A DNA stretch of 39,066 nt from Deltaproteobacteria bacterium (GCA_016203765.1 JACQMB010000091.1:1-39066); one strand, 5' to 3'; counted from the stretch's first letter, positions 7,746 to 17,966 are shown. The notes: generated from the sequence alone by a model not told the origin. A program made the numbers and translations.

Positions 7746-10673
7746 TCATTTATTCCTCACTTTGGTCAAATAAGTAATCGCCGGTCCCACATTTAAATCC
7801 TCCAGAACGTGATAGCCGCGCGGGCCTTTCTTTAACTGTGACACTTTGGATTCCGGATCGTTCATGTCGCCAAAAACGATCGCGTCGGCCGGACAGCTCT
7901 GCTGACAGGCCGTCTTGATTTCCCCATCCCTCACCTTCCTGCCAAAATCCTTGGCCTTGTCCTTCCCCTCCTGAATCCGCTGGACGCAAAAAGTGCATTT
8001 TTCCATCACCCCTTTTTCGCGCACGGTCACGTCGGGATTGAGGACCATGGCCAGGGGGCTCTTCTCCTTCCAGAGATATTCAAACCAATTAAACCGCCTC
8101 ACCTTGTAGGGACAATTGTTCGAACAATACCGAGTGCCGACACAGCGGTTGTAGACTTGGACGTTCAACCCCTCTTCGTTATGAAGCGTGGCCAGCGTGG
8201 GACAGACCGTCTCGCACGGGGCGTTTTCGCAATGCTGGCAGAGCATCGGCTGGGAGGTGACGTCGGGATTGTTTTCATCGCCCGAATAGTAACGGTCAAT
8301 CCGAATCCAATGCATCTCGCGGCCCTGCTTGACCCTCTCTTCCCCGACCACGGGAATGTTGTTTTCAGCCTGACAGGCAATCATGCAGGCACTGCAACCG
8401 GTGCAAGCGTTCAGATCGATCGCCATCCCCCAGCGGTGCCCTTCATATTTATGTCCGGACCACATGCTGGGGAGAGGGATTACCTCCTCGTTGCCGGCCT
8501 TCGGATTTTTTTGATACTCGGCAAAAGTCGTCTCCTTAATAATCGGCCGTCCATAAACCTGAAAATGCTGTTGGGTGGTGGGGAGTTTCATCCACTGGCC
8601 GGTTTTTTCGATTGTGACCGGCAAAACGGGGGCGGCAAAGGCAAAGGCGTTGGCGCCGAGGTTGTTGCCTACCTGCCCCGCCGCCGTCCGGCCGAAACCC
8701 AAAGGCACGGCGGCCACATCCTCATGCAAGCCGGGTTGAATATAAATGGGAAGTTCGACGGTCGTCCCGTCGTCGGTTTTGAGTTTAACAATATCCCCCT
8801 CTTTCAATTTTTCGGCCTTGGCCTTTTCGGGGGCAAGGGCCACGTAATTTCGCCAGGTCATCTTGGTGACCGGGTCGGGGAGCTCCTTGAGCCAGCCGTT
8901 GTTGGCCGACCGGCCGTCGTAGGCGGGGAGGGTGGGGTAAGTGACCAAGAGGGGACCAGGGACCAGGGACCAGGGACCAGGGACCTTAAGAGTTGGCAAA
9001 ATATTTGTATTAAATTTCCGAAGAGAATATGTGTTTGCCGATCTTCTGGAATCAAAAATGCCATCGCGCAAAACCGTTTCCCAGAAGGTTTGAAAGGAGG
9101 AGGTTAAACCAAATTTCTTGTAAATATTTTCATTCCAATAATTTTTCAAATATTCGTACCATAGTTGTTGGTCCCTGGTCCCTGGTCCCTGGTCCCTGGT
9201 CCATTTCAATAAGCTCTCCTGAAATGCCCTGGTGTTAAACAACGGAGCCACCGCCGGCTGGCGCAGGCTGAGGAGCCCTTCAATCGGTTCGGCGTCCCCC
9301 CAGTTTTCCAGATAATGATGGTCCGGCAGAACCCAGCCGGCCTTCAAGGCGGTCTCATCGACTCGGTCGGCAAAGCTGAGGGTGTGAGGAACTTTGGCCG
9401 CCGCCTCTTCAAAACCGGCGCCCTTGGGAAGCGTGTAGGCCGGATTCGCCTTGTATATCAAAAGACAATCCACGCGCCCCTCTTTCATTTCCCGAATCAA
9501 ATTTTTCAAATCGCTCGTAGCGCGGTTGTTTTGGTGCGAGGGGGTTCCAAACTCAATCGTTTCTCCCTCATTTTCAAAAAGATGATTTAAATGATTGGCC
9601 GCGACGTGCAAGGCTACACCAATTTCCCCTTTCAGGGAATATCCCCCTCCCAGGATCAGCGATTCGCCGCGATGTTTTTGAAGGTCCGCGGCCAGACGGC
9701 GCAGGATGGAAAGGTCAATCCCCGTTTCGGCGGCCGCTTTTTCCATCGGGTATTCCCCCGCCAGTCCCAGCGCGATCTTGATTTCATTGCCGGGCCGAAC
9801 CGGAATATGCAGATCGGCGTTGGAGCCGGTCACGGTGGGATAACTTTCAAAAACAACCAGACGGTTCATCATCCCATCGTGCAGATTGCGGCGCTGAGAA
9901 AATTGTTTGGTAAATTCCACCGGCGAAAGCCAGGTGCCCAAAAAATCGGCTCCAAAAGAAACGATCAACTTGGCCTTGTCGAAACGGTAATGGGGAATGA
10001 AGGCCTCGCCATAGCTTAAACGATTCGCCTCGCGCAATTCTTCCAAAGCAAGGGGTTCATAAACGATCTGCCTGGCATTGGGAAATTGGCTTAAAAATTC
10101 GTCGATCACTTTTTGGGTGGCTGGGCTTTCGATATGGCCGGTCAGAAGGCGAAGAGCGCCGCTCTTTTCTTTTACCTCTTTTAAAATGGCCGCCATCGAT
10201 TGATCCACTTCCTCCCAGGAGACGGCTTCCCAGGATGGACTACGGACTACGGACCGCGCCGTGCCCTGAGCTTGTCGAAGGGGACTACGGACCGGTCCCC
10301 GCAGGCGGTCAGGATCGTAAAGATTCAACAGCGAAGCCTGCCCGCGGGCGCACAATCCGCCCTGATTCATCGGGTGATCGGGGTTTCCCTCCAGCTTGAT
10401 GGGACGACCCTCCCGGACCTTGGCCAGCATCCCGCAAGCGGCGGGGCACTCCCCGCAGGTGGTGGCGTACCAGTTGGCCACACCCGGTGTTACCTCTTCC
10501 GGTTTGTTCAGATAGGGAACGATTTTTTCCACGGGGCGGCGGGCGCACCCGGCCGCCGAGGCCATCGCCAACGCCGCCCCCATCAACTTAAGGAATTCCC
10601 GGCGATCGACCCCTTCGGGACGTTCATCCTGCCCCTGCTCAAACTCCGGATGTTTCCAGTGCTTTTCACTCAT
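7746..10673 (-). CDS. actB: Alternative complex III subunit ActB (molybdopterin-oxidoreductase-like domain fused to a 4Fe-4S domain)
   Basis: Tat signal DRREFLK; REGRPIKLEGNPDHP; CTGCSACMIAC, CQHCENAPCETVCP, CVGTRYCSNNCP, KCTFC...CQQSCP. Confidence 0.96.
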   Translation of the reverse strand: MSEKHWKHPEFEQGQDERPEGVDRREFLKLMGAALAMASAAGCARRPVEKIVPYLNKPEEVTPGVANWYATTCGECPAACGMLAKVREGRPIKLEGNPDHPMNQGGLCARGQASLLNLYDPDRLRGPVRSPLRQAQGTARSVVRSPSWEAVSWEEVDQSMAAILKEVKEKSGALRLLTGHIESPATQKVIDEFLSQFPNARQIVYEPLALEELREANRLSYGEAFIPHYRFDKAKLIVSFGADFLGTWLSPVEFTKQFSQRRNLHDGMMNRLVVFESYPTVTGSNADLHIPVRPGNEIKIALGLAGEYPMEKAAAETGIDLSILRRLAADLQKHRGESLILGGGYSLKGEIGVALHVAANHLNHLFENEGETIEFGTPSHQNNRATSDLKNLIREMKEGRVDCLLIYKANPAYTLPKGAGFEEAAAKVPHTLSFADRVDETALKAGWVLPDHHYLENWGDAEPIEGLLSLRQPAVAPLFNTRAFQESLLKWTRDQGPGTRDQQLWYEYLKNYWNENIYKKFGLTSSFQTFWETVLRDGIFDSRRSANTYSLRKFNTNILPTLKVPGPWSLVPGPLLVTYPTLPAYDGRSANNGWLKELPDPVTKMTWRNYVALAPEKAKAEKLKEGDIVKLKTDDGTTVELPIYIQPGLHEDVAAVPLGFGRTAAGQVGNNLGANAFAFAAPVLPVTIEKTGQWMKLPTTQQHFQVYGRPIIKETTFAEYQKNPKAGNEEVIPLPSMWSGHKYEGHRWGMAIDLNACTGCSACMIACQAENNIPVVGEERVKQGREMHWIRIDRYYSGDENNPDVTSQPMLCQHCENAPCETVCPTLATLHNEEGLNVQVYNRCVGTRYCSNNCPYKVRRFNWFEYLWKEKSPLAMVLNPDVTVREKGVMEKCTFCVQRIQEGKDKAKDFGRKVRDGEIKTACQQSCPADAIVFGDMNDPESKVSQLKKGPRGYHVLEDLNVGPAITYLTKVRNK
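8952..8986. repeat. Heptamer array GGGACCA x5 inside actB
   Basis: Read directly; encodes KVPGPWSLVPGP. Confidence 0.95.
9169..9203. repeat. Heptamer array TGGTCCC x5 inside actB, inverted relative to 8952-8986
   Basis: Read directly; encodes WTRDQGPGTRDQ. Confidence 0.95.
10237..10295. repeat. GGACTAC heptamers interrupted by the REP-like motif CCCTGAGCTTGTCGAAGGG, inside actB
   Basis: Read directly; encodes VRSPLRQAQGTARSVVRSP. Confidence 0.8.
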
Positions 10674-10675
10674 AA

Positions 10676-11215
10676 CTAATGGTGACAGGTATCACAGCTC
10701 GTCGGCGCCTTTTCCTTCCGATGACACTCGACGCAAAATCCCATGTTCAACCGCTCCTGTTGGGTAACCTTTTGCATCCGCTCTACCTTCCCATGACACT
10801 TCTCGCAAGCAATCCCTTTGGCGATATGCCTCTTGTGCGAAAAAAAGACAAAATCGGCCACATCATGGACCTTGACCCATTCCAACGAATCCCCCTGTTC
10901 GATCAGAGTCTTCATCTTTTGAATGTGCGGCGAGTCGATCCTGACCACCGAGTGGCAGTTCATGCAGACATTCATGCTGGGAATGGTGGCATGCCTCGAT
11001 TGATCAGCCGCCGCATGGCAATATTGGCAGTCAATCTTTAGCTGGCCGGCGTGAAGTTCGTGGCTGAAGGGAATCGGCTGATCCGGGGCGTAGCCTCGGT
11101 TGTCCCCCAGCTTATACCAGAACCAAAAAACCCCCAAACCCAGCCCGCTGGCCAGGGCGAGAGGCAAAATGGTTTTCAACCGGCTTGATTTTAGTTTAAT
11201 CAACGTCCGCATCAC
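10676..11215 (-). CDS. actA: Alternative complex III pentaheme cytochrome c ActA
   Basis: One TM helix, GYAPDQPIPFSHELHAG, five CxxCH motifs. Confidence 0.95.
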   Translation of the reverse strand: MMRTLIKLKSSRLKTILPLALASGLGLGVFWFWYKLGDNRGYAPDQPIPFSHELHAGQLKIDCQYCHAAADQSRHATIPSMNVCMNCHSVVRIDSPHIQKMKTLIEQGDSLEWVKVHDVADFVFFSHKRHIAKGIACEKCHGKVERMQKVTQQERLNMGFCVECHRKEKAPTSCDTCHH

Positions 11216-11265
11216 GAAAATGGTACGCGGTTTTTAGGAGAAGCGGCCCGGAATGTAAAGGATAT

Positions 11266-11325
11266 TTACCGAATTTCCAGCACCGCCTCCGGCCCTTGGG
11301 CCGGGGGGGAGCCCTTCAGGGAGGC
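11266..11325 (-). repeat. Orphan copy 3 of the 3' end of the 1158-aa gene
   Basis: Translates ASLKGSPPAQGPEAVLEIR* versus AALKSSPLAQGPEAVLRIQ* at 12583-12642. Confidence 0.88.
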
Positions 11326-11337
11326 AAAATACGAGGC

Positions 11338-11556
11338 CTACCCGGCCATTCTGGAAGCGGTGATTGGAAGTGAAACGGTTTCGAGGCGGGTCAAATCCAA
11401 TTTGGATTTGGCATGATCAATATCAATGCCGACCACATTGCCGGATTTATCAAAATCAACAAGTAGCCCTTGGGCAATCTCGCGTGTTTCCACGCTTTTT
11501 TTGGGGCTTAACTCAATATAAAGGGAATCGGTGTCACGATAATAGTTGAGTTTCAT
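11338..11556 (-). CDS. DUF2283 family small protein (putative antitoxin)
   Basis: MKLNYYRDTDSLYIEL...LLVDFDKSGNVVGIDI pattern; start moved to ATG 11556. Confidence 0.85.
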   Translation of the reverse strand: MKLNYYRDTDSLYIELSPKKSVETREIAQGLLVDFDKSGNVVGIDIDHAKSKLDLTRLETVSLPITASRMAG

Positions 11557-11797
11557 GAGATCTTTTGAATTTATGGACGGCAGGATAGCCGATACGAAAA
11601 ACACGGAACAACCTGTTCGGAAAGGCCTTCATAGCCTTCAGCGCCACCTTCAGCTCATCCCTGCCAATAAAATATTTTCCCGAATCAGGTTCAATCGCAA
11701 TAATCCTCCCCTTATATTTTGGGATAAGATGCCGCAACAGCCTCCGGTAAACTCTTTCCCCCTTACTGCTCAACCTTTTAAGCTTCTTCTCGACCAT
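11534..11797 (-). CDS. Small basic protein, DUF5678-like
   Basis: KYKGRIIAIEPDSGKYFIG...A..A...FP...RIG pattern; low GC; own putative promoter. Confidence 0.65.
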   Translation of the reverse strand: MVEKKLKRLSSKGERVYRRLLRHLIPKYKGRIIAIEPDSGKYFIGRDELKVALKAMKAFPNRLFRVFRIGYPAVHKFKRSHETQLLS

Positions 11798-11805
11798 ACA
11801 GATAC

Positions 11806-11834
11806 AAGTTATTTTAAGCCGATCCGTTTGTCAA
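11806..11834 (-). promoter_or_regulatory. Putative sigma70 promoter, probably leaderless transcript
   Basis: TTGACA-17 nt-TAACTT, 8 nt before ATG 11797; no SD. Confidence 0.55.
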
Positions 11835-11843
11835 CGGCGGCTC

Positions 11844-11940
11844 TCACCAATCCGTAGCACCGCCCCCGTCCCTTGGGCCAGGGGGGAGCTCTTCAGGGGG
11901 CGAGGACTTTTTTGGCCCCCCTCCCCCACGCCTTGGTGAT
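11844..11940 (-). repeat. Orphan copy 2 of the 3' end of the 1158-aa gene (with 1-nt indels)
   Basis: Aligns with 12583-12680, including exact CCTTGGGCCAGGGGGGAGCTCTTCAGGG. Confidence 0.92.
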
Positions 11941-11987
11941 TCCGCAGTTGTCTCCACACTGTCTAAACCCCCTCTGTTTGGATGCTG

Positions 11988-12320
11988 CTATGGAATTGCC
12001 AGAAAGGAGGCGTCCGAATCGTCTAAAAAAAAACGGATTTCTTCTTGGTAACTACGAATGATTGCTTCGAGGTCTTTTGTTTTAACATTGCCTGTTCTTA
12101 ACCAAATCACTTTTGGCGGAAATCCAAAAAGAAAACTCCGCTGATGAAAATCGGAGTCCTTAGAAACAATGACGTAACCATGAGACTTCGCAAATTCCCA
12201 AACAACCTCATCCTCCGCCTGTTTCAGGCCGTGATCCCTAACGTGTGATGCGCCGGGAAATAAACCCGAGAGACTTTGAACCAAGCGGGGGGAGATGTTT
12301 TGATCCAAAAGGAATTTCAC
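11988..12320 (-). CDS. DUF5615 PIN-like (VapC45-like) toxin
   Basis: MKFLLDQNISP, D..VWEFA, IVSKDSDF, PPKVIWLRTGN. Confidence 0.9.
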   Translation of the reverse strand: MKFLLDQNISPRLVQSLSGLFPGASHVRDHGLKQAEDEVVWEFAKSHGYVIVSKDSDFHQRSFLFGFPPKVIWLRTGNVKTKDLEAIIRSYQEEIRFFLDDSDASFLAIP

Positions 12321-12541
12321 CTGGACAAAGTCTGGAGTCTTCGCTCTCGATCTGCAGCGAACGTCAAGCAGGCTTTAATATCTTCCAGGGTCAAATCAGG
12401 AAAATCTTTAAGGATTTCCTCAACCGTCATTCCGGAGGCTAAATAATCCAACACCTCATAAACGGTGATACGCAAGCCGCGGATACAGGGTTTGCCCCCT
12501 CTTTTGCCAGGCTCGATGGTGATGTGCTTTTGATAATCCAT
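12317..12541 (-). CDS. DUF433 family antitoxin
   Basis: ITIEPGKRGGKPCIRGLRITV...GMTVEEILKDFPDLTLEDIKACL; 4-nt overlap with the PIN gene; start moved to ATG 12541. Confidence 0.92.
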   Translation of the reverse strand: MDYQKHITIEPGKRGGKPCIRGLRITVYEVLDYLASGMTVEEILKDFPDLTLEDIKACLTFAADRERRLQTLSR

Positions 12542-12547
12542 ATTGCA

Positions 12548-12576
12548 AGAATGGAGCAACCCCAAAAAAAGGTCAA
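12548..12576 (-). promoter_or_regulatory. Putative sigma70 promoter, probably leaderless transcript
   Basis: TTGACC-17 nt-CATTCT, 6 nt before ATG 12541. Confidence 0.45.
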
Positions 12577-12582
12577 GTCCTT

Positions 12583-15500
12583 TCACTGAATCCGCAACAC
12601 CGCCTCCGGTCCTTGGGCCAGGGGGGAGCTCTTCAGGGCGGCGAGGATTTTTGTGGCCCCCGTCCCCCACGCCTTCGTGACGGCGTATCTTCCGCCGCCC
12701 AAATCGCTGATCCGGAGCTTGGCGTAGTTCCGGGCTTGATTTTTCTCTCCCACCGCCAGCGGCGAGGGGTTGACAAGACTTCCGTCGGCGTGCACTTGCA
12801 TCTGCCAGATGATTTCGGAGGGTCTTTGGCCTTTCTCTTCGGCCACGGTTTGAAACATCGCCTCAATGTCGCTCGGCTCCATTGTGGAAAGATCGTCTGT
12901 GCGCAAAGCCCTCAAACCGATCCAGCCGTCGGCGCGGATGGTCAAAACCTCCTTCAGCCCCTCCGCTCTTCTCAAACCCTCCACCACATTTTTGGCCCCC
13001 GTCCCCCGTGCTTTCGTGACGGCGTATCTCCCGCCGCCCAAATCGCTGATCCGGAGCTTGGCGTAGCCGTAGCCCTTATTTTCCTCCCCCACCGCCAACG
13101 GCGAGGGGTTGACAAGACTTCCGTCGGCTTGCACCAGCGTCTGCCAGATGATCTCGGAGGGTCTTTGGCCTTTCTCTTCGGCCGCGGCTTGAAACATCGC
13201 CTCGATGTCGCCCGTCTCCATTGTGGAGAGATCGTCTTTATGCAAAGCCCTCAAACCGATCCAGCCGTCACTGCGGATGGTCAAAACCTCCTTCAGTCCC
13301 TCCGATCTTCTCAAACCCTCCACCACATTTCTGGCCCTCGTCCCCCGCGCCTTCGTGACGGCGTATCTTCCGCCTCCCAAATCGCTGATCTGGATTTTGG
13401 CGTAGTTTGTGGATTGATTTTCCTCCCCCACCGCCAGCGACGAGGGGTTGCTAAGACTTCCGTCGGCTTGCACCAGCGTCTGCCAGATGATCTCGGAGGG
13501 TCTTTGGCCTTTCTCTTTGGCCACGGCTTGAAACATCGCCTCGATGTCGCCCGTCTCCATTGTGAAAAGATCGTCTTTGCGCAAAGCCCTCAAACCGATC
13601 CAGCCGTCACTGCGGATGGTCAAAACCTCCTTCAGCCCCTCCGCTCTTCTCAAACCCTCCACCACATTTTTGGCCCCCGTCCCCCGTGCTTTCGTGACGG
13701 CGTATCTCCCGCCGCCCAAATCGCCGATCCGGAGCTTGGCGTAGTCCCGGGATTGATTTTCTTCCCCCACCGCCAGCGGCGAGGGGTTGCTAAGACTTCC
13801 GTCGGCTTGCACTCGCGTCTGCCAGATGATCTCGGAGGGTCTTTGGCCTTTTTCCCCGGCCACCAGATCAAAAAGAGTCTCCAAATCGGCCGGAGCGGTC
13901 TGGTCCAACGCATCCAGACGCCCTGGCCTGAAATAGTCACCCAAAATGCGCCTCCCCAGATGACGCTCCACATATTTTTTGCCAACCAGATTCCCCAAAG
14001 CCTTAAAGAAATTTCTCCGGACCCCCGGATTTTCGGGGGAAACCCCCTCTTCCAAATAGCGCCTCAAGGTTTCAGTCTTAATGCCGGAAACGGCTCCCAA
14101 CATCCCTCCGTATCTCCGAATCACCATGTAGCGAGCCGCCTTGAGAAGGGCCTGTTCATTGTCGGGAAGATGTTGCGGCATCGGATGCCGCGTCTCGTAA
14201 TAGCGAAGACGATCCAGCGCCCAGGCGTGCAAAAGAAAACCGGACTCTCTTGAATCCAGCCCCAGGGCCTCCGCCAGTCTCTCCACCGTCAGTCTCGCGT
14301 TGGGGACAAACCGCCCGGCCAGAAGGTCTTCCGACAACTCCTGCGAATATCCCAAACCAAACGCGATCGCGCCGGCATTGGGAACGGGGGACAATTGCCT
14401 CAAATAACGCCCCAAATTTTCCCCCGCCGCCTCCCCAAACAGGTCAATCGTTAATACATCGGTATCCTTTAATACCTCCCTCCCGCCGCGGGGGCCTGCG
14501 GGACGAGCGGATTTCAAAGGAGATCCCCTTTTAATCTCGCCGGCCTCCAAAATATAAACGCTCGGATCAAAGGCGGTCAGGCCCGGATGACGAAAAAACA
14601 TCCCGGCCAAATCGACAAACAGGGGGGCGCTTTGGGCCCCCAGATGCGCCCCCACCGACTGGAGGGCGTAGCGCAAGCCCCCGGCTCGCTCCACCCCGGC
14701 AAAAATCACCGCGGCTAGGGGGTCGCTTTGAAACTCGTCCACCCCTTCCACCAGCGCTTCCACGTGGATCACAATCGGGCGGACCCCCAAGACAAAATCG
14801 CGCCAGTCCAGATCCCGCCTCGCCTCGATTTCGGGATCGCCCGATATCACCAGGGCCGCCCGGTCCCGATAACGCCCCTCGGCTTGCAAACGGGCGGCCA
14901 AGGCCATGGCTTCCTCACGGCTCCCGGCGTAGACCGCCATCCTCGGTATTTTTTCCTCCCGGCTCAGTTCTCTATCCAGCTGAACGATGGTTTCTTCTAA
15001 ATGCTCCACCCTCTCGACCAAACCCAACTCCCCCCACGCCTCATGCACCGGCTTGTCCGTCGCCAAAGGTTTGGGCAGATAGACCCTTGTCTCCGGTTTG
15101 ATCACCAGTCCCTGTTTGAGAAGGGAGGGAAGGTCCTCCGAAAAAATCAGCCCCTTGGCCCCGCCGTAAATGCCGGCCGCCCCTTCCGCGACCGACTCGG
15201 TCAGGCCCAACAAAAATTGCCCCTCGACCTTTTGAATCTGAAAATCGGGACTCAAAAATCCCCCCTCCACCAGGACGCGAATGAACCGGCTCCGGTCTTT
15301 GTCCTCCGGGTCATCCTCGATCGGACGAACATGATGCTCCTTGTCCAAGATCACCACTCCCGCCCTGGCAAGCGCCCCGCGCAAGTCCGGCCCCTCCATC
15401 CGGCTCAACTCATGAATCGAGGCCAGGCGGATTTTAATCCCGTCCCTCTCGAAAATCGCTTGTTCTTTGTCTTGAATCGTTTCGCCCGTCAGACGGGAAA

Positions 15501-16059
15501 GACGCCCCTGCCATCTTTTGAAATTCTCTTTGCCCTGCACGATCAGCACCGTCTCTTTTTCAACCAGCGCCTGCTGGACCGGCCCCGAGTGGGGCCTTCG
15601 CAACAGCCTCTCCAAAAAGGCCTCGGTTAAATCCCGCAACCCCAAAGGAGAGACAATCAAGCCCCGGTCGCTCACTCCCTGTTCCAAATGATCGATCAAA
15701 CGCTCCAGAGACTCATCCAAAAAACGCGAGTAGCGGCGGGAGGGAATTTCTCCCAAACGATGGAGAGAAATTTTCGCAACCGCTTCCCGCCAGGGGTCCT
15801 GGGGCACGGCGCGTATTCTGGCGGCGAACTCCCGTTGAATCTCTTCCCGGTCGGTTCCCGTGGCGGCGCGCCAGCCGCGGACCAAATCCTTCAACTCGGC
15901 GCGGAGCCCCTCATCCACCCCCGCAAAGGCGTCCGGAAGCAGGGCCGCGTCGCCGGGCAAAAAATCGGCCCCCTCGATCACACCGGCCGCCAACGACGCC
16001 CCCCCATAGACCGAAGGCCCCACTCCCAAAAATAACGCTGATGACGCAAAGATGCTCAT
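12583..16059 (-). CDS. Large hypothetical protein: degenerate SF2 (ResIII/RadD-like) helicase fold, two XRE-like HTH segments, C-terminal 113-aa repeats
   Basis: Eroded motifs in helicase order: GLIVSPLGLRDLT, VILDKEHH, LLGLTES, AVYAGSREEA, VEALVEGVD, LQSVGAHL; QRPSEIIWQ occurs four times. Confidence 0.8.
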   Translation of the reverse strand: MSIFASSALFLGVGPSVYGGASLAAGVIEGADFLPGDAALLPDAFAGVDEGLRAELKDLVRGWRAATGTDREEIQREFAARIRAVPQDPWREAVAKISLHRLGEIPSRRYSRFLDESLERLIDHLEQGVSDRGLIVSPLGLRDLTEAFLERLLRRPHSGPVQQALVEKETVLIVQGKENFKRWQGRLSRLTGETIQDKEQAIFERDGIKIRLASIHELSRMEGPDLRGALARAGVVILDKEHHVRPIEDDPEDKDRSRFIRVLVEGGFLSPDFQIQKVEGQFLLGLTESVAEGAAGIYGGAKGLIFSEDLPSLLKQGLVIKPETRVYLPKPLATDKPVHEAWGELGLVERVEHLEETIVQLDRELSREEKIPRMAVYAGSREEAMALAARLQAEGRYRDRAALVISGDPEIEARRDLDWRDFVLGVRPIVIHVEALVEGVDEFQSDPLAAVIFAGVERAGGLRYALQSVGAHLGAQSAPLFVDLAGMFFRHPGLTAFDPSVYILEAGEIKRGSPLKSARPAGPRGGREVLKDTDVLTIDLFGEAAGENLGRYLRQLSPVPNAGAIAFGLGYSQELSEDLLAGRFVPNARLTVERLAEALGLDSRESGFLLHAWALDRLRYYETRHPMPQHLPDNEQALLKAARYMVIRRYGGMLGAVSGIKTETLRRYLEEGVSPENPGVRRNFFKALGNLVGKKYVERHLGRRILGDYFRPGRLDALDQTAPADLETLFDLVAGEKGQRPSEIIWQTRVQADGSLSNPSPLAVGEENQSRDYAKLRIGDLGGGRYAVTKARGTGAKNVVEGLRRAEGLKEVLTIRSDGWIGLRALRKDDLFTMETGDIEAMFQAVAKEKGQRPSEIIWQTLVQADGSLSNPSSLAVGEENQSTNYAKIQISDLGGGRYAVTKARGTRARNVVEGLRRSEGLKEVLTIRSDGWIGLRALHKDDLSTMETGDIEAMFQAAAEEKGQRPSEIIWQTLVQADGSLVNPSPLAVGEENKGYGYAKLRISDLGGGRYAVTKARGTGAKNVVEGLRRAEGLKEVLTIRADGWIGLRALRTDDLSTMEPSDIEAMFQTVAEEKGQRPSEIIWQMQVHADGSLVNPSPLAVGEKNQARNYAKLRISDLGGGRYAVTKAWGTGATKILAALKSSPLAQGPEAVLRIQ
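12640..13915. repeat. 339-bp tandem repeat, about 3.7 copies
   Basis: CTGCCAGATGAT recurs every 339 bp (about 12802, 13141, 13480, 13819); shadow ORFs repeat at 12866/13205/13544. Confidence 0.97.
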
Positions 16060-16068
16060 GCCTATTCC

Positions 16069-16096
16069 TTATCGGCTAAACCCAAAAAATGTTGCG
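16069..16096 (-). promoter_or_regulatory. Putative sigma28(FliA)-like promoter
   Basis: Perfect GCCGATAA -10 box 9 nt before ATG 16059; CGCAAC 14 nt upstream instead of the canonical TAAA. Confidence 0.45.
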
Positions 16097-16158
16097 TGCG
16101 CGGCCGCCTTCGAGCGATTCATTGATTTTGGCCAATAAATCCGCTACCTTATTAAGCA

Positions 16159-17966
<1,808 letters not shown>

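Follow-up and report, generated by a model that had tools for sequence, protein, structure and literature searches.

The 39,066-nucleotide (nt) stretch of DNA analyzed here, referred to below as the window, is contig C21 of G000, a metagenome-assembled genome (MAG) of 1.47 Mb, 68% complete, from a groundwater bacterium of the Deltaproteobacteria. On its minus strand, a gene encoding a protein of 1158 amino acids (aa) has its last ~98 nt repeated twice downstream, with two small two-gene cassettes in between. A first-pass annotation had read this arrangement as an array of toxin-antitoxin (TA)-type gene pairs, in which repeated integration through the 3' end of the large gene replaced its C terminus and pushed older ends and their passengers downstream. 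The observation is confirmed by our analysis, and the interpretation is partly supported.

Three gene ends and two cassettes

All features of the array lie on the minus strand, and coordinates refer to the whole window:

12583-12680, minus strand: end1, working 3' end of the 1158-aa gene, terminating in KAWGTGATKILAALKSSPLAQGPEAVLRIQ and the stop
12317-12541, minus strand: cassette 1, gene 1, DUF433 (antitoxin type), 74 aa (PF04255, E = 6e-27)
11988-12320, minus strand: cassette 1, gene 2, DUF5615/PIN-like (toxin type), 110 aa (PF18480, E = 6.8e-36)
11849-11939, minus strand: end2, putative displaced 3' end, now a pseudo-end; 67% GC, like the host gene
11534-11797, minus strand: cassette 2, gene 1, encoding a conserved 87-aa protein outside any named family
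11338-11556, minus strand: cassette 2, gene 2, DUF2283, 72 aa (PF10049, E = 1.5e-16)
11266-11325, minus strand: end3, putative displaced 3' end that stays in frame, its stop (TAA) at the homologous position

The presence of three gene-end copies was confirmed by alignment. In a search of the organism's own assembly, end2 matched end1 at 89% identity over 92 nt (E = 4.3e-28). End3 matched end1 at 90% over 48 nt (11278-11325; E = 3.2e-12); extended without gaps to the TAA at 11266-11268, this alignment has an identity of 83.6% across 61 nt. The frame of end2 is broken by two 1-nt deletions, which lead to a premature stop in the original frame. End3 keeps both its frame and the position of its stop, with substitutions, just as had been noticed; its translation is ASLKGSPPAQGPEAVLEIR followed by the stop, and it directly abuts the conserved region upstream of actA. 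The inserts flanked by these direct repeats (>30 bp; 92 nt and 48 to 61 nt) measure 642 and 523 bp. The tail motif of end1 is conserved in a homolog from genome G035 (ALRQSPITQGEDPVLRIELEE and stop), as well as at a domain junction of the homolog in G002, a relative of the source organism.

The contiguity of this arrangement was established with Logan contigs of four runs (X1 to X4) from one groundwater study, in which the source sample may be included. One contig of run X1 (1931 nt, 10791-12721) and one of run X2 (1716 nt, 11006-12721) cross all three ends at even depth with 0 differences and no joints, and runs X3 and X4 contribute consistent pieces. Since contigs of two runs span the whole array unchanged, mis-assembly, the worry attached to the first description, is very unlikely. 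An artifact of co-assembled strains is accordingly hardly credible: the source is a MAG, and ends at 84% to 90% identity could be strain variants, but the spanning contigs leave no alternative joints, and the pattern is also present in five other, independently assembled genomes.

The predicted DUF433 and PIN pair of cassette 1 was upheld, its second gene having, besides the DUF5615 match, a weaker second match to PIN_10 (E = 1.5e-7). The start of this gene overlaps the stop of the first by 4 nt. DUF433 and DUF5615 are recognized TA partner families, and the sequence of cassette 1 is plausibly that of a type II TA pair; a second DUF433-DUF5615 pair is found on contig C9 of the same genome.

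Cassette 2 is less conventional. While its DUF2283 gene was identified correctly at first pass, the "DUF5678-like" label given to the 87-aa open reading frame (ORF) has to be dropped, this protein having no Pfam match even at E <= 10. It belongs to an unnamed family with 19 homologs at 51% to 71% identity, and we observed this family across many phyla (loci L116 to L129). In 12 of 14 related loci, its usual partner is an overlapping gene of ~120 aa with a DTGFNG motif, for which one sub-threshold aspartyl-protease match was obtained among five proteins tested. DUF2283, which overlaps the 87-aa gene by 23 nt in the window, follows the family at none of these 14 loci (tblastn, one short query). 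The two families of cassette 2 thus lack the conserved partnership expected of a type II TA pair, and because DUF2283 replaces the usual ~120-aa partner, cassette 2 may have arisen by recombination between two modules.

In composition the cassettes are foreign, with 45.6% GC in cassette 1 and 45.3% in cassette 2 as against 59.2% in the host gene and 67% to 70% in the displaced ends. No transposase or integrase occurs among the Pfam matches of the cassette ORFs, whether in the window or at the analogous loci described below, in line with the earlier remark that no integrase is visible. None of five window proteins had a PADLOC match, and a search of NCBIfam returned nothing.

The same footprint at other gene boundaries

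When the genome was compared with itself and the results were read locus by locus with Pfam, at least eight further loci within its 1.47 Mb were found to carry a cassette, in most cases a TA pair, at a gene boundary followed by a diverged copy of the gene's end. The cassettes start at the stop of the gene or within 4 nt of it and are followed by a diverged copy of its last 40 to 131 nt; elsewhere, it is the start of a gene or its upstream DNA that is duplicated. These analogous loci, as they appear in the assembly, are:

C70: rtcB; end copy of 62 nt, 87% identity; Gp49 + helix-turn-helix (HTH) cassette
C96: topA; end copy of 62 nt, 90%; ParE + RelB/Phd cassette
C121: GAF-SpoIIE gene; end copy of 107 nt, 83%; PIN + antitoxin (VapBC) cassette
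C135: DcrB-like gene; end copy of 40 nt, 95%; AbiEii + AbiEi-like cassette
C92: DUF4215 gene; end copy of 46 nt, 96%; AAA_14/DUF4143 cassette
C92, at 141 kb: further gene-end copy
C54, 3765-4469 (L052, 2566-3315): further gene-end copy, 131 nt, adjoined by a free-standing LAGLIDADG_3 gene
C139: ppdK (by reading of the translation); gene start or upstream DNA duplicated; ParE cassette
C121b: DUF255 gene; gene start or upstream DNA duplicated; ribbon-helix-helix (RHH) + ParE cassette
C9: gene start or upstream DNA duplicated; DUF433 + DUF5615 cassette

Seven of these other cassettes have a GC content of 42% to 50%, compared with 52% to 59% for their host genes, and the flank repeats range from 28 to 194 nt across loci. 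The recurrence extends to the family. Of the 12 PIN/ParE genes in G000, 4 have flanking direct repeats of at least 28 nt, as do 8 of 48 such genes in five relatives (corresponding to 7 of 47 distinct places), whereas the figure for random control targets is 8 of 300. On inspection, four of the relatives' cases, spread over four related genera, proved to be copies of a neighboring gene's 3' end, two were dispersed hairpin repeats, and one was unclear. The gene-end cases are:

G004: end of an acyltransferase gene
G002: end of flhA, with all three differences (3/3) synonymous
G005: end of a gene
G003: end of an OB_ChsH2_C gene (L074, C35, 1366-2931), in the order OB_ChsH2_C end, HEPN + nucleotidyltransferase, end copy (88%), antitoxin + ParE, end copy (99%)

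The last of these is a second two-cassette array, resembling that of the window.

Empty sites accompany the footprint at two of the loci. The 3' flank of topA is empty in all five relatives, and the slot between the SpoIIE gene and folC is empty in G002 and G003, two of the three relatives with that adjacency; in G001, folC has a different upstream neighbor. In G004 the slot holds an MNT/HEPN-like pair (by reading of the translations), around which no flank duplicates were found; cassettes therefore also occur without the footprint. In G000 itself the order at C121 is SpoIIE end, VapB-VapC, a 65-nt copy of the start of folC, a copy of the SpoIIE end, another gene, and folC. Judged by its sequence, this locus resembles a head-to-tail fusion of two haplotypes of a single intergenic slot, a composite that neither an att site nor a transposon would predict.

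The repeats themselves share little. In the window, the copies end in GTTGCGG, GCTACGG, and GCTGGAA without a conserved core, and their longest identical run is internal rather than at an edge. The best other match to their 60-nt core in the assembly had an E value of only 0.067, and the core pattern had 0 matches in genome_contigs and 0 in metagenome_contigs, so that a search for other sites or paralogous ends, as first suggested, found none; a dispersed element of the repetitive extragenic palindromic (REP) type, considered as a candidate, was rejected on the same result. Among the flank repeats of at least nine different targets there is no shared core and no motif in common with the core of the window. 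Neither terminal inverted repeats nor a common end motif was detected in the cassettes; in 42 comparisons of ends, a single 9-mer rose barely above shuffled sequences. Because the core is unique here, motifs are unshared, repeat lengths vary, and gene starts are duplicated too, the process looks general, acting at many gene boundaries in the family rather than at one locus. These comparisons lend no support to the idea that the large gene ends in a dedicated, repeatedly used integration or att-like site.

Several observations adjoin these loci. The end copy at C54 derives from a periplasmic-binding-protein gene, and a pentapeptide-repeat gene adjoins it as well. At C111, two intergenic segments (9508-9611 and 10831-10977) are duplicated with their order swapped around a two-gene insert beside tRNA genes; one gene of the insert is TrpR/YerC-like by reading of its translation, and this flank duplication is of a different kind. 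Dispersed hairpin copies of the GGGGACAC type bracket genes on C92 (105400-105454, 106959-107013, 137716-137757, and 138771-138812) and at L073, and any screen must separate such hairpin repeats from gene-end duplicates.

Origin of the displaced ends

To characterize the displaced copies, six pairs of working and displaced gene ends were aligned in the working frame. Of 42 pooled codon differences, 26 were synonymous and 16 nonsynonymous, a synonymous fraction of 0.62, compared with 0.225 +/- 0.061 in a neutral simulation in which 0 of 20,000 runs reached the observed value. A stop is preserved at the homologous position in each of the six displaced copies, a different codon being used in four, and premature stops are absent (neutral P = 0.019). 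Given this synonymous excess and stop retention across the six pairs, the displaced ends look like sequences that diverged as working gene ends in other lineages rather than decaying in situ. The first-pass view of end3 as the terminus of another allele is supported in this pooled form, the support coming mainly from the analogous loci.

Considering these data, we propose that end2 and end3 are probably relic termini that were displaced through homology-anchored capture of DNA carrying a gene end plus a cassette, a reading that leans on the analogous loci. The incoming piece would consist of a homologous copy of the gene's end and a small, AT-richer cassette from a diverged relative, with the gene's end serving as the homologous anchor for integration. 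One route would be homology-facilitated illegitimate recombination (HFIR), that is, one-sided homologous recombination combined with an illegitimate joint within the last 50 to 100 nt of the resident gene; the other would be a single crossover of a circularized fragment. Either would leave a working end, a cassette, and a displaced end, and repetition would stack cassettes into an array. Such a process would need neither a dedicated recombinase nor an att site; the displaced ends would have no function of their own, and cassette 1, as a TA pair, would resist later loss. For the window, we infer the recombination route, the order of events, and the uptake of foreign DNA. ComEC and DprA are present in G000, albeit as weak evidence, since they are common in control genomes (10 of 14 and 11 of 14, respectively). 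A tentative extension, which we consider rather unlikely, is that gene termini in this family are reusable landing pads on which a RecA- or repair-type pathway, possibly favored by the cassettes, repeatedly captures TA and defense cassettes from diverged relatives and stacks them behind ordinary genes. If true, such a pathway would do the work of an integron with no integrase and would show how chromosomal TA loci move without mobile elements.

A number of observations weigh against displacement by homology-anchored capture. The 1158-aa protein had 0 relatives in genome_contigs or metagenome_contigs, and among 5.8 billion proteins a search with its residues 820 to 1158 found only the protein itself (word-based, 7999 candidates scored). 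No strains with fewer or other cassettes, or with working termini of the end2 or end3 type, were found, and the four runs contain one arrangement, with no joints indicative of cassette loss or circles, in contigs from which rare variants would drop out. At the window itself the codon signature is missing: the end1/end3 pair has 2 synonymous and 5 nonsynonymous differences, so that the allelic claim does not stand on this locus alone, and end2 is simply decayed. The codon test pools few, short pairs that were picked by eye. The working end of the G003 array is closer to the outermost copy (99% identity) than to the middle one (88%), which simple left-anchored HFIR does not predict, and a single crossover or gene conversion has to be invoked. 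The duplicate at L076 in one relative is identical at 44 of 44 positions and fits target duplication in situ as well. Furthermore, the array may have been imported complete, as part of the island in which it lies, the events possibly predating this genome, and an integrase could sit in the missing third of the MAG.

Among other explanations, long target duplication in situ, in which a staggered break or an error of repair or replication duplicated 50 to 100 nt and the copies diverged in place, is unlikely, although it keeps a real chance. The structure is the one described for restriction-modification genes (PMC2853133), the L076 duplicate and the window pair suit it, and the frameshifts of end2 are as in a neutral relic. 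The pooled synonymous excess and stop retention are nevertheless improbable even if the working copy were perfectly constrained while the relic drifted (P = 8e-4, or 1.3e-4 without the window pair), and the C121 junction, which includes a duplicated folC start, does not amount to a plain target duplication. Site-specific integration appears decidedly unlikely. Here, small elements would carry an attP site that resembles the end of the gene; the responsible recombinase, of the tyrosine or serine type, would act in trans or have been lost; and the cassettes would be leftovers of decayed elements, retained because their TA genes resist deletion. Element e14 and phage 21 in icd of Escherichia coli reportedly leave the same layout of end, insert, and displaced end, with mostly silent differences, and the incompleteness of the MAG leaves room for such an enzyme. 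However, no recombinase gene occurs in the window or in any cassette, and the single tyrosine recombinase gene (PF00589) of the assembly lies on C55, with none on the contig of the window. The absence of a common core, the spread of repeat lengths, and the duplicated gene starts also disagree with this explanation, and cassettes trimmed to TA genes at every locus would rarely be expected from random decay.

It is highly improbable that the repeated end is a functional element, such as an operator, a terminator, or an RNA, reused upstream of each promoter. Reading of the sequence confirmed the -35-like hexamers TTGACC, TTGACA, and TTTACA that had been reported 6 to 9 nt after the respective stops, and end3 holds a short dyad, CCGGCCC-AA-GGGCCGG, visible by eye. 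A consensus promoter scan of 11100-12750 nevertheless called 0 promoters; no terminator-like site or inverted-repeat arms were found inside any end copy, and Rfam gave no match at E <= 1. Moreover, the copies differ by indels and by 10% to 16%, the sequence is coding, the peptide is conserved in distant homologs, and the analogous repeats are ends of other genes. Capture anchored in the homology of gene ends remains our preferred reading.

Long target duplication is said to have been first described in a Helicobacter pylori paper. Insertion of restriction-modification genes with long target duplication is described as involving no other mobile elements, as occurring mostly in competent species, and as having an unknown mechanism; the direct repeats are variable, exceed 30 bp, are single copy in empty-site genomes, and in some cases overlap the 3' end of a gene (Furuta, Abe & Kobayashi 2010, PMC2853133). 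Our loci are similar in that addiction-type units of less than 20 kb are inserted without a transposase or integrase between long, variable direct repeats, with empty sites in relatives at topA and SpoIIE-folC. They differ in their cargo, which consists of TA-type and small defense-like genes without restriction or modification genes, in the anchoring of the repeats at gene termini with mostly synonymous differences that point to an allelic origin, and in forming stacked arrays and many loci in one small genome. A partial literature survey at the level of titles and abstracts found no report of TA cassettes with such duplications, although the supplementary figures of PMC2853133 may hold related cases.

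The likeness to orphan modules of polymorphic toxin loci that had been pointed out at first pass is apt. Displacement and orphan arrays of Rhs, contact-dependent inhibition (CDI), and type VI secretion system (T6SS) genes were reportedly described by Jackson et al. in 2009 and Koskiniemi et al. in 2014. For T6SS effector-immunity, Rhs, and CDI loci, HFIR without an integrase has been proposed for C-terminal displacement arrays (Kirchberger et al. 2017, PMC5361080). As in those arrays, each incoming module would recombine by way of a conserved upstream stretch, shifting earlier 3' pieces and the genes paired with them further downstream. Unlike them, the host gene here has no features of a delivered toxin, the displaced pieces are homologous ends rather than alternative tips, and no cognate immunity gene follows the ends; instead, the passengers are self-contained two-gene cassettes with -35-like hexamers and no functional link to the host gene. 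Their families also stand behind unrelated genes, and the same layout recurs behind the housekeeping genes rtcB, topA, and flhA.

Laboratory HFIR events were reportedly obtained by de Vries and Wackernagel in 2002, Prudhomme et al. in 2002, and Meier and Wackernagel in 2003. HFIR in transformable bacteria is also the subject of a further study (PMC3240628). The proposed mechanism shares with HFIR a one-sided homologous anchor and an illegitimate joint that captures foreign DNA beside a conserved gene; in contrast to those studies, only natural footprints are at hand here, and the G003 array fits a single crossover better.

Integrons are ordered arrays of small cassettes with related repeats, often including TA cassettes, and their attC ends carry GTTRRRY; integrative elements that restore the 3' end of a gene leave a displaced gene end at the far junction. 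The window array differs from an integron in having no IntI, with no PF00589 gene on its contig, and no attC-type inverted repeat or GTTRRRY core, and its repeats are host-gene sequence, different at every locus. From a 3'-end integrative element it differs by lacking a recombinase in the window and cassettes and an identical attL/attR core, although action in trans is possible in an incomplete genome.

The spread of TA loci without transposases or integrases has long been discussed, with few footprints at the level of sequence, and this genome and its relatives provide more than 12. The signature of the displaced ends favors homology-anchored capture, with diverged relatives as the source of the DNA, and speaks less for target duplication or for site-specific integration. 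If upheld in closed genomes and strain series, this would extend both long target duplication and C-terminal displacement to TA cassettes behind housekeeping genes. The cases described here depart from both known patterns in their cargo of TA-type and other small cassettes, in their ordinary host genes, in the trace of selection that the displaced copies bear, and in how densely they occur within a single small genome and its family. That the footprint is family-wide makes the movement of TA cassettes directly testable. In practice, looking for a cassette followed by a diverged gene-end copy would be an easy way to detect recent gene gain in bacteria that have not been cultured, and pseudo-ends should not be annotated as genes. 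The present C terminus of the 1158-aa protein may be of foreign origin.

The host gene and its island

The array is part of a larger accessory segment:

12583-16059, minus strand: host gene, ORF of 1158 aa, with four tandem repeats of 339 bp each at its C-terminal end
11266-16120, minus strand: accessory island of ~4.85 kb, comprising the host gene, the two cassettes, and the three ends
10676-11215, minus strand: first native downstream gene, encoding a multihaem cytochrome (Cytochrome_C7, E = 2.7e-12); "actA" is a label only

In four relatives (G001, G002, G003, and G005), tblastn synteny places a Ser/Thr kinase gene and actA as neighbors, with a tatA-like gene immediately upstream of actA. 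In G000, the island stands in place of this tatA-like gene between the kinase gene and actA. Homology to the relatives restarts at AAATATCCTTTACAT, beginning inside the stop codon of end3, and on the other side ends after AAAATCAAT near 16120, both boundaries having been set by eye. The actA-like gene is followed by an actB-like gene of 975 aa; identity to the genes of the relatives is 58% to 70%, with conserved synteny.

The host protein has only sub-threshold Pfam matches and no Rhs, CdiA, or toxin domain. Its G035 homolog (28% identity, residues 106 to 935) is an intact ResIII/Helicase_C fusion, and by this homology the 1158-aa protein is a predicted relative of superfamily 2 (SF2) helicase fusion proteins, without a helicase match of its own. 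To the eye, Walker-type motifs are altered, LPTGTGKT to SPLGLRDL and DEAHH to DKEHH. From its sequence, the protein has the appearance of a helicase that was inactivated and joined to a 113-aa domain present in four copies. This repeat domain occurs in 4 of 93 genomes of the class, in none of them in the same context, and in G002 and G004 it runs on into a further C-terminal domain. Because the gene is rare and lies in an island absent from the context in relatives, it is accessory DNA itself.

Several minor observations concern the island and its neighbors. At L022 (G035, C78, 4781-5782), a MazE/PIN pair stands behind the homolog of the host gene, and the two form an insertion between ftsW and murG; this TA pair is bracketed by copies of a ~55-nt sequence, and the same sequence forms a large palindrome right after the stop of the gene. 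Other TatA-like ORFs are present in G000 on C76 (48% identity) and C56. The suggestion, hinted at in a MAFFT alignment, that end3 is a remnant of the lost tatA was rejected, as local scores of 14 to 18 compare with shuffle means of 15 to 16. In G003, the spacer between the kinase gene and tatA carries a different insert of 2.2 kb (L038, C55, 6252-8147), with ORFs of 453 aa and of 136 aa, the latter nucleotidyltransferase-like by reading of its translation. Finally, tandem runs of 7-nt units (GTCCGTA or GGACCAG type) occur in the kinase gene (17273-17501) and the actB-like gene (8858-9240), as well as on C23 (2400-2473 and 3392-3455), C55 (13242-13278 and 15144-15180), and C18 (5888-5926 and 7364-7402). 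They lie inside genes or at gene edges, often on both sides of a gene, and encode the in-frame peptides GPWSLVP or TDQGPRT.

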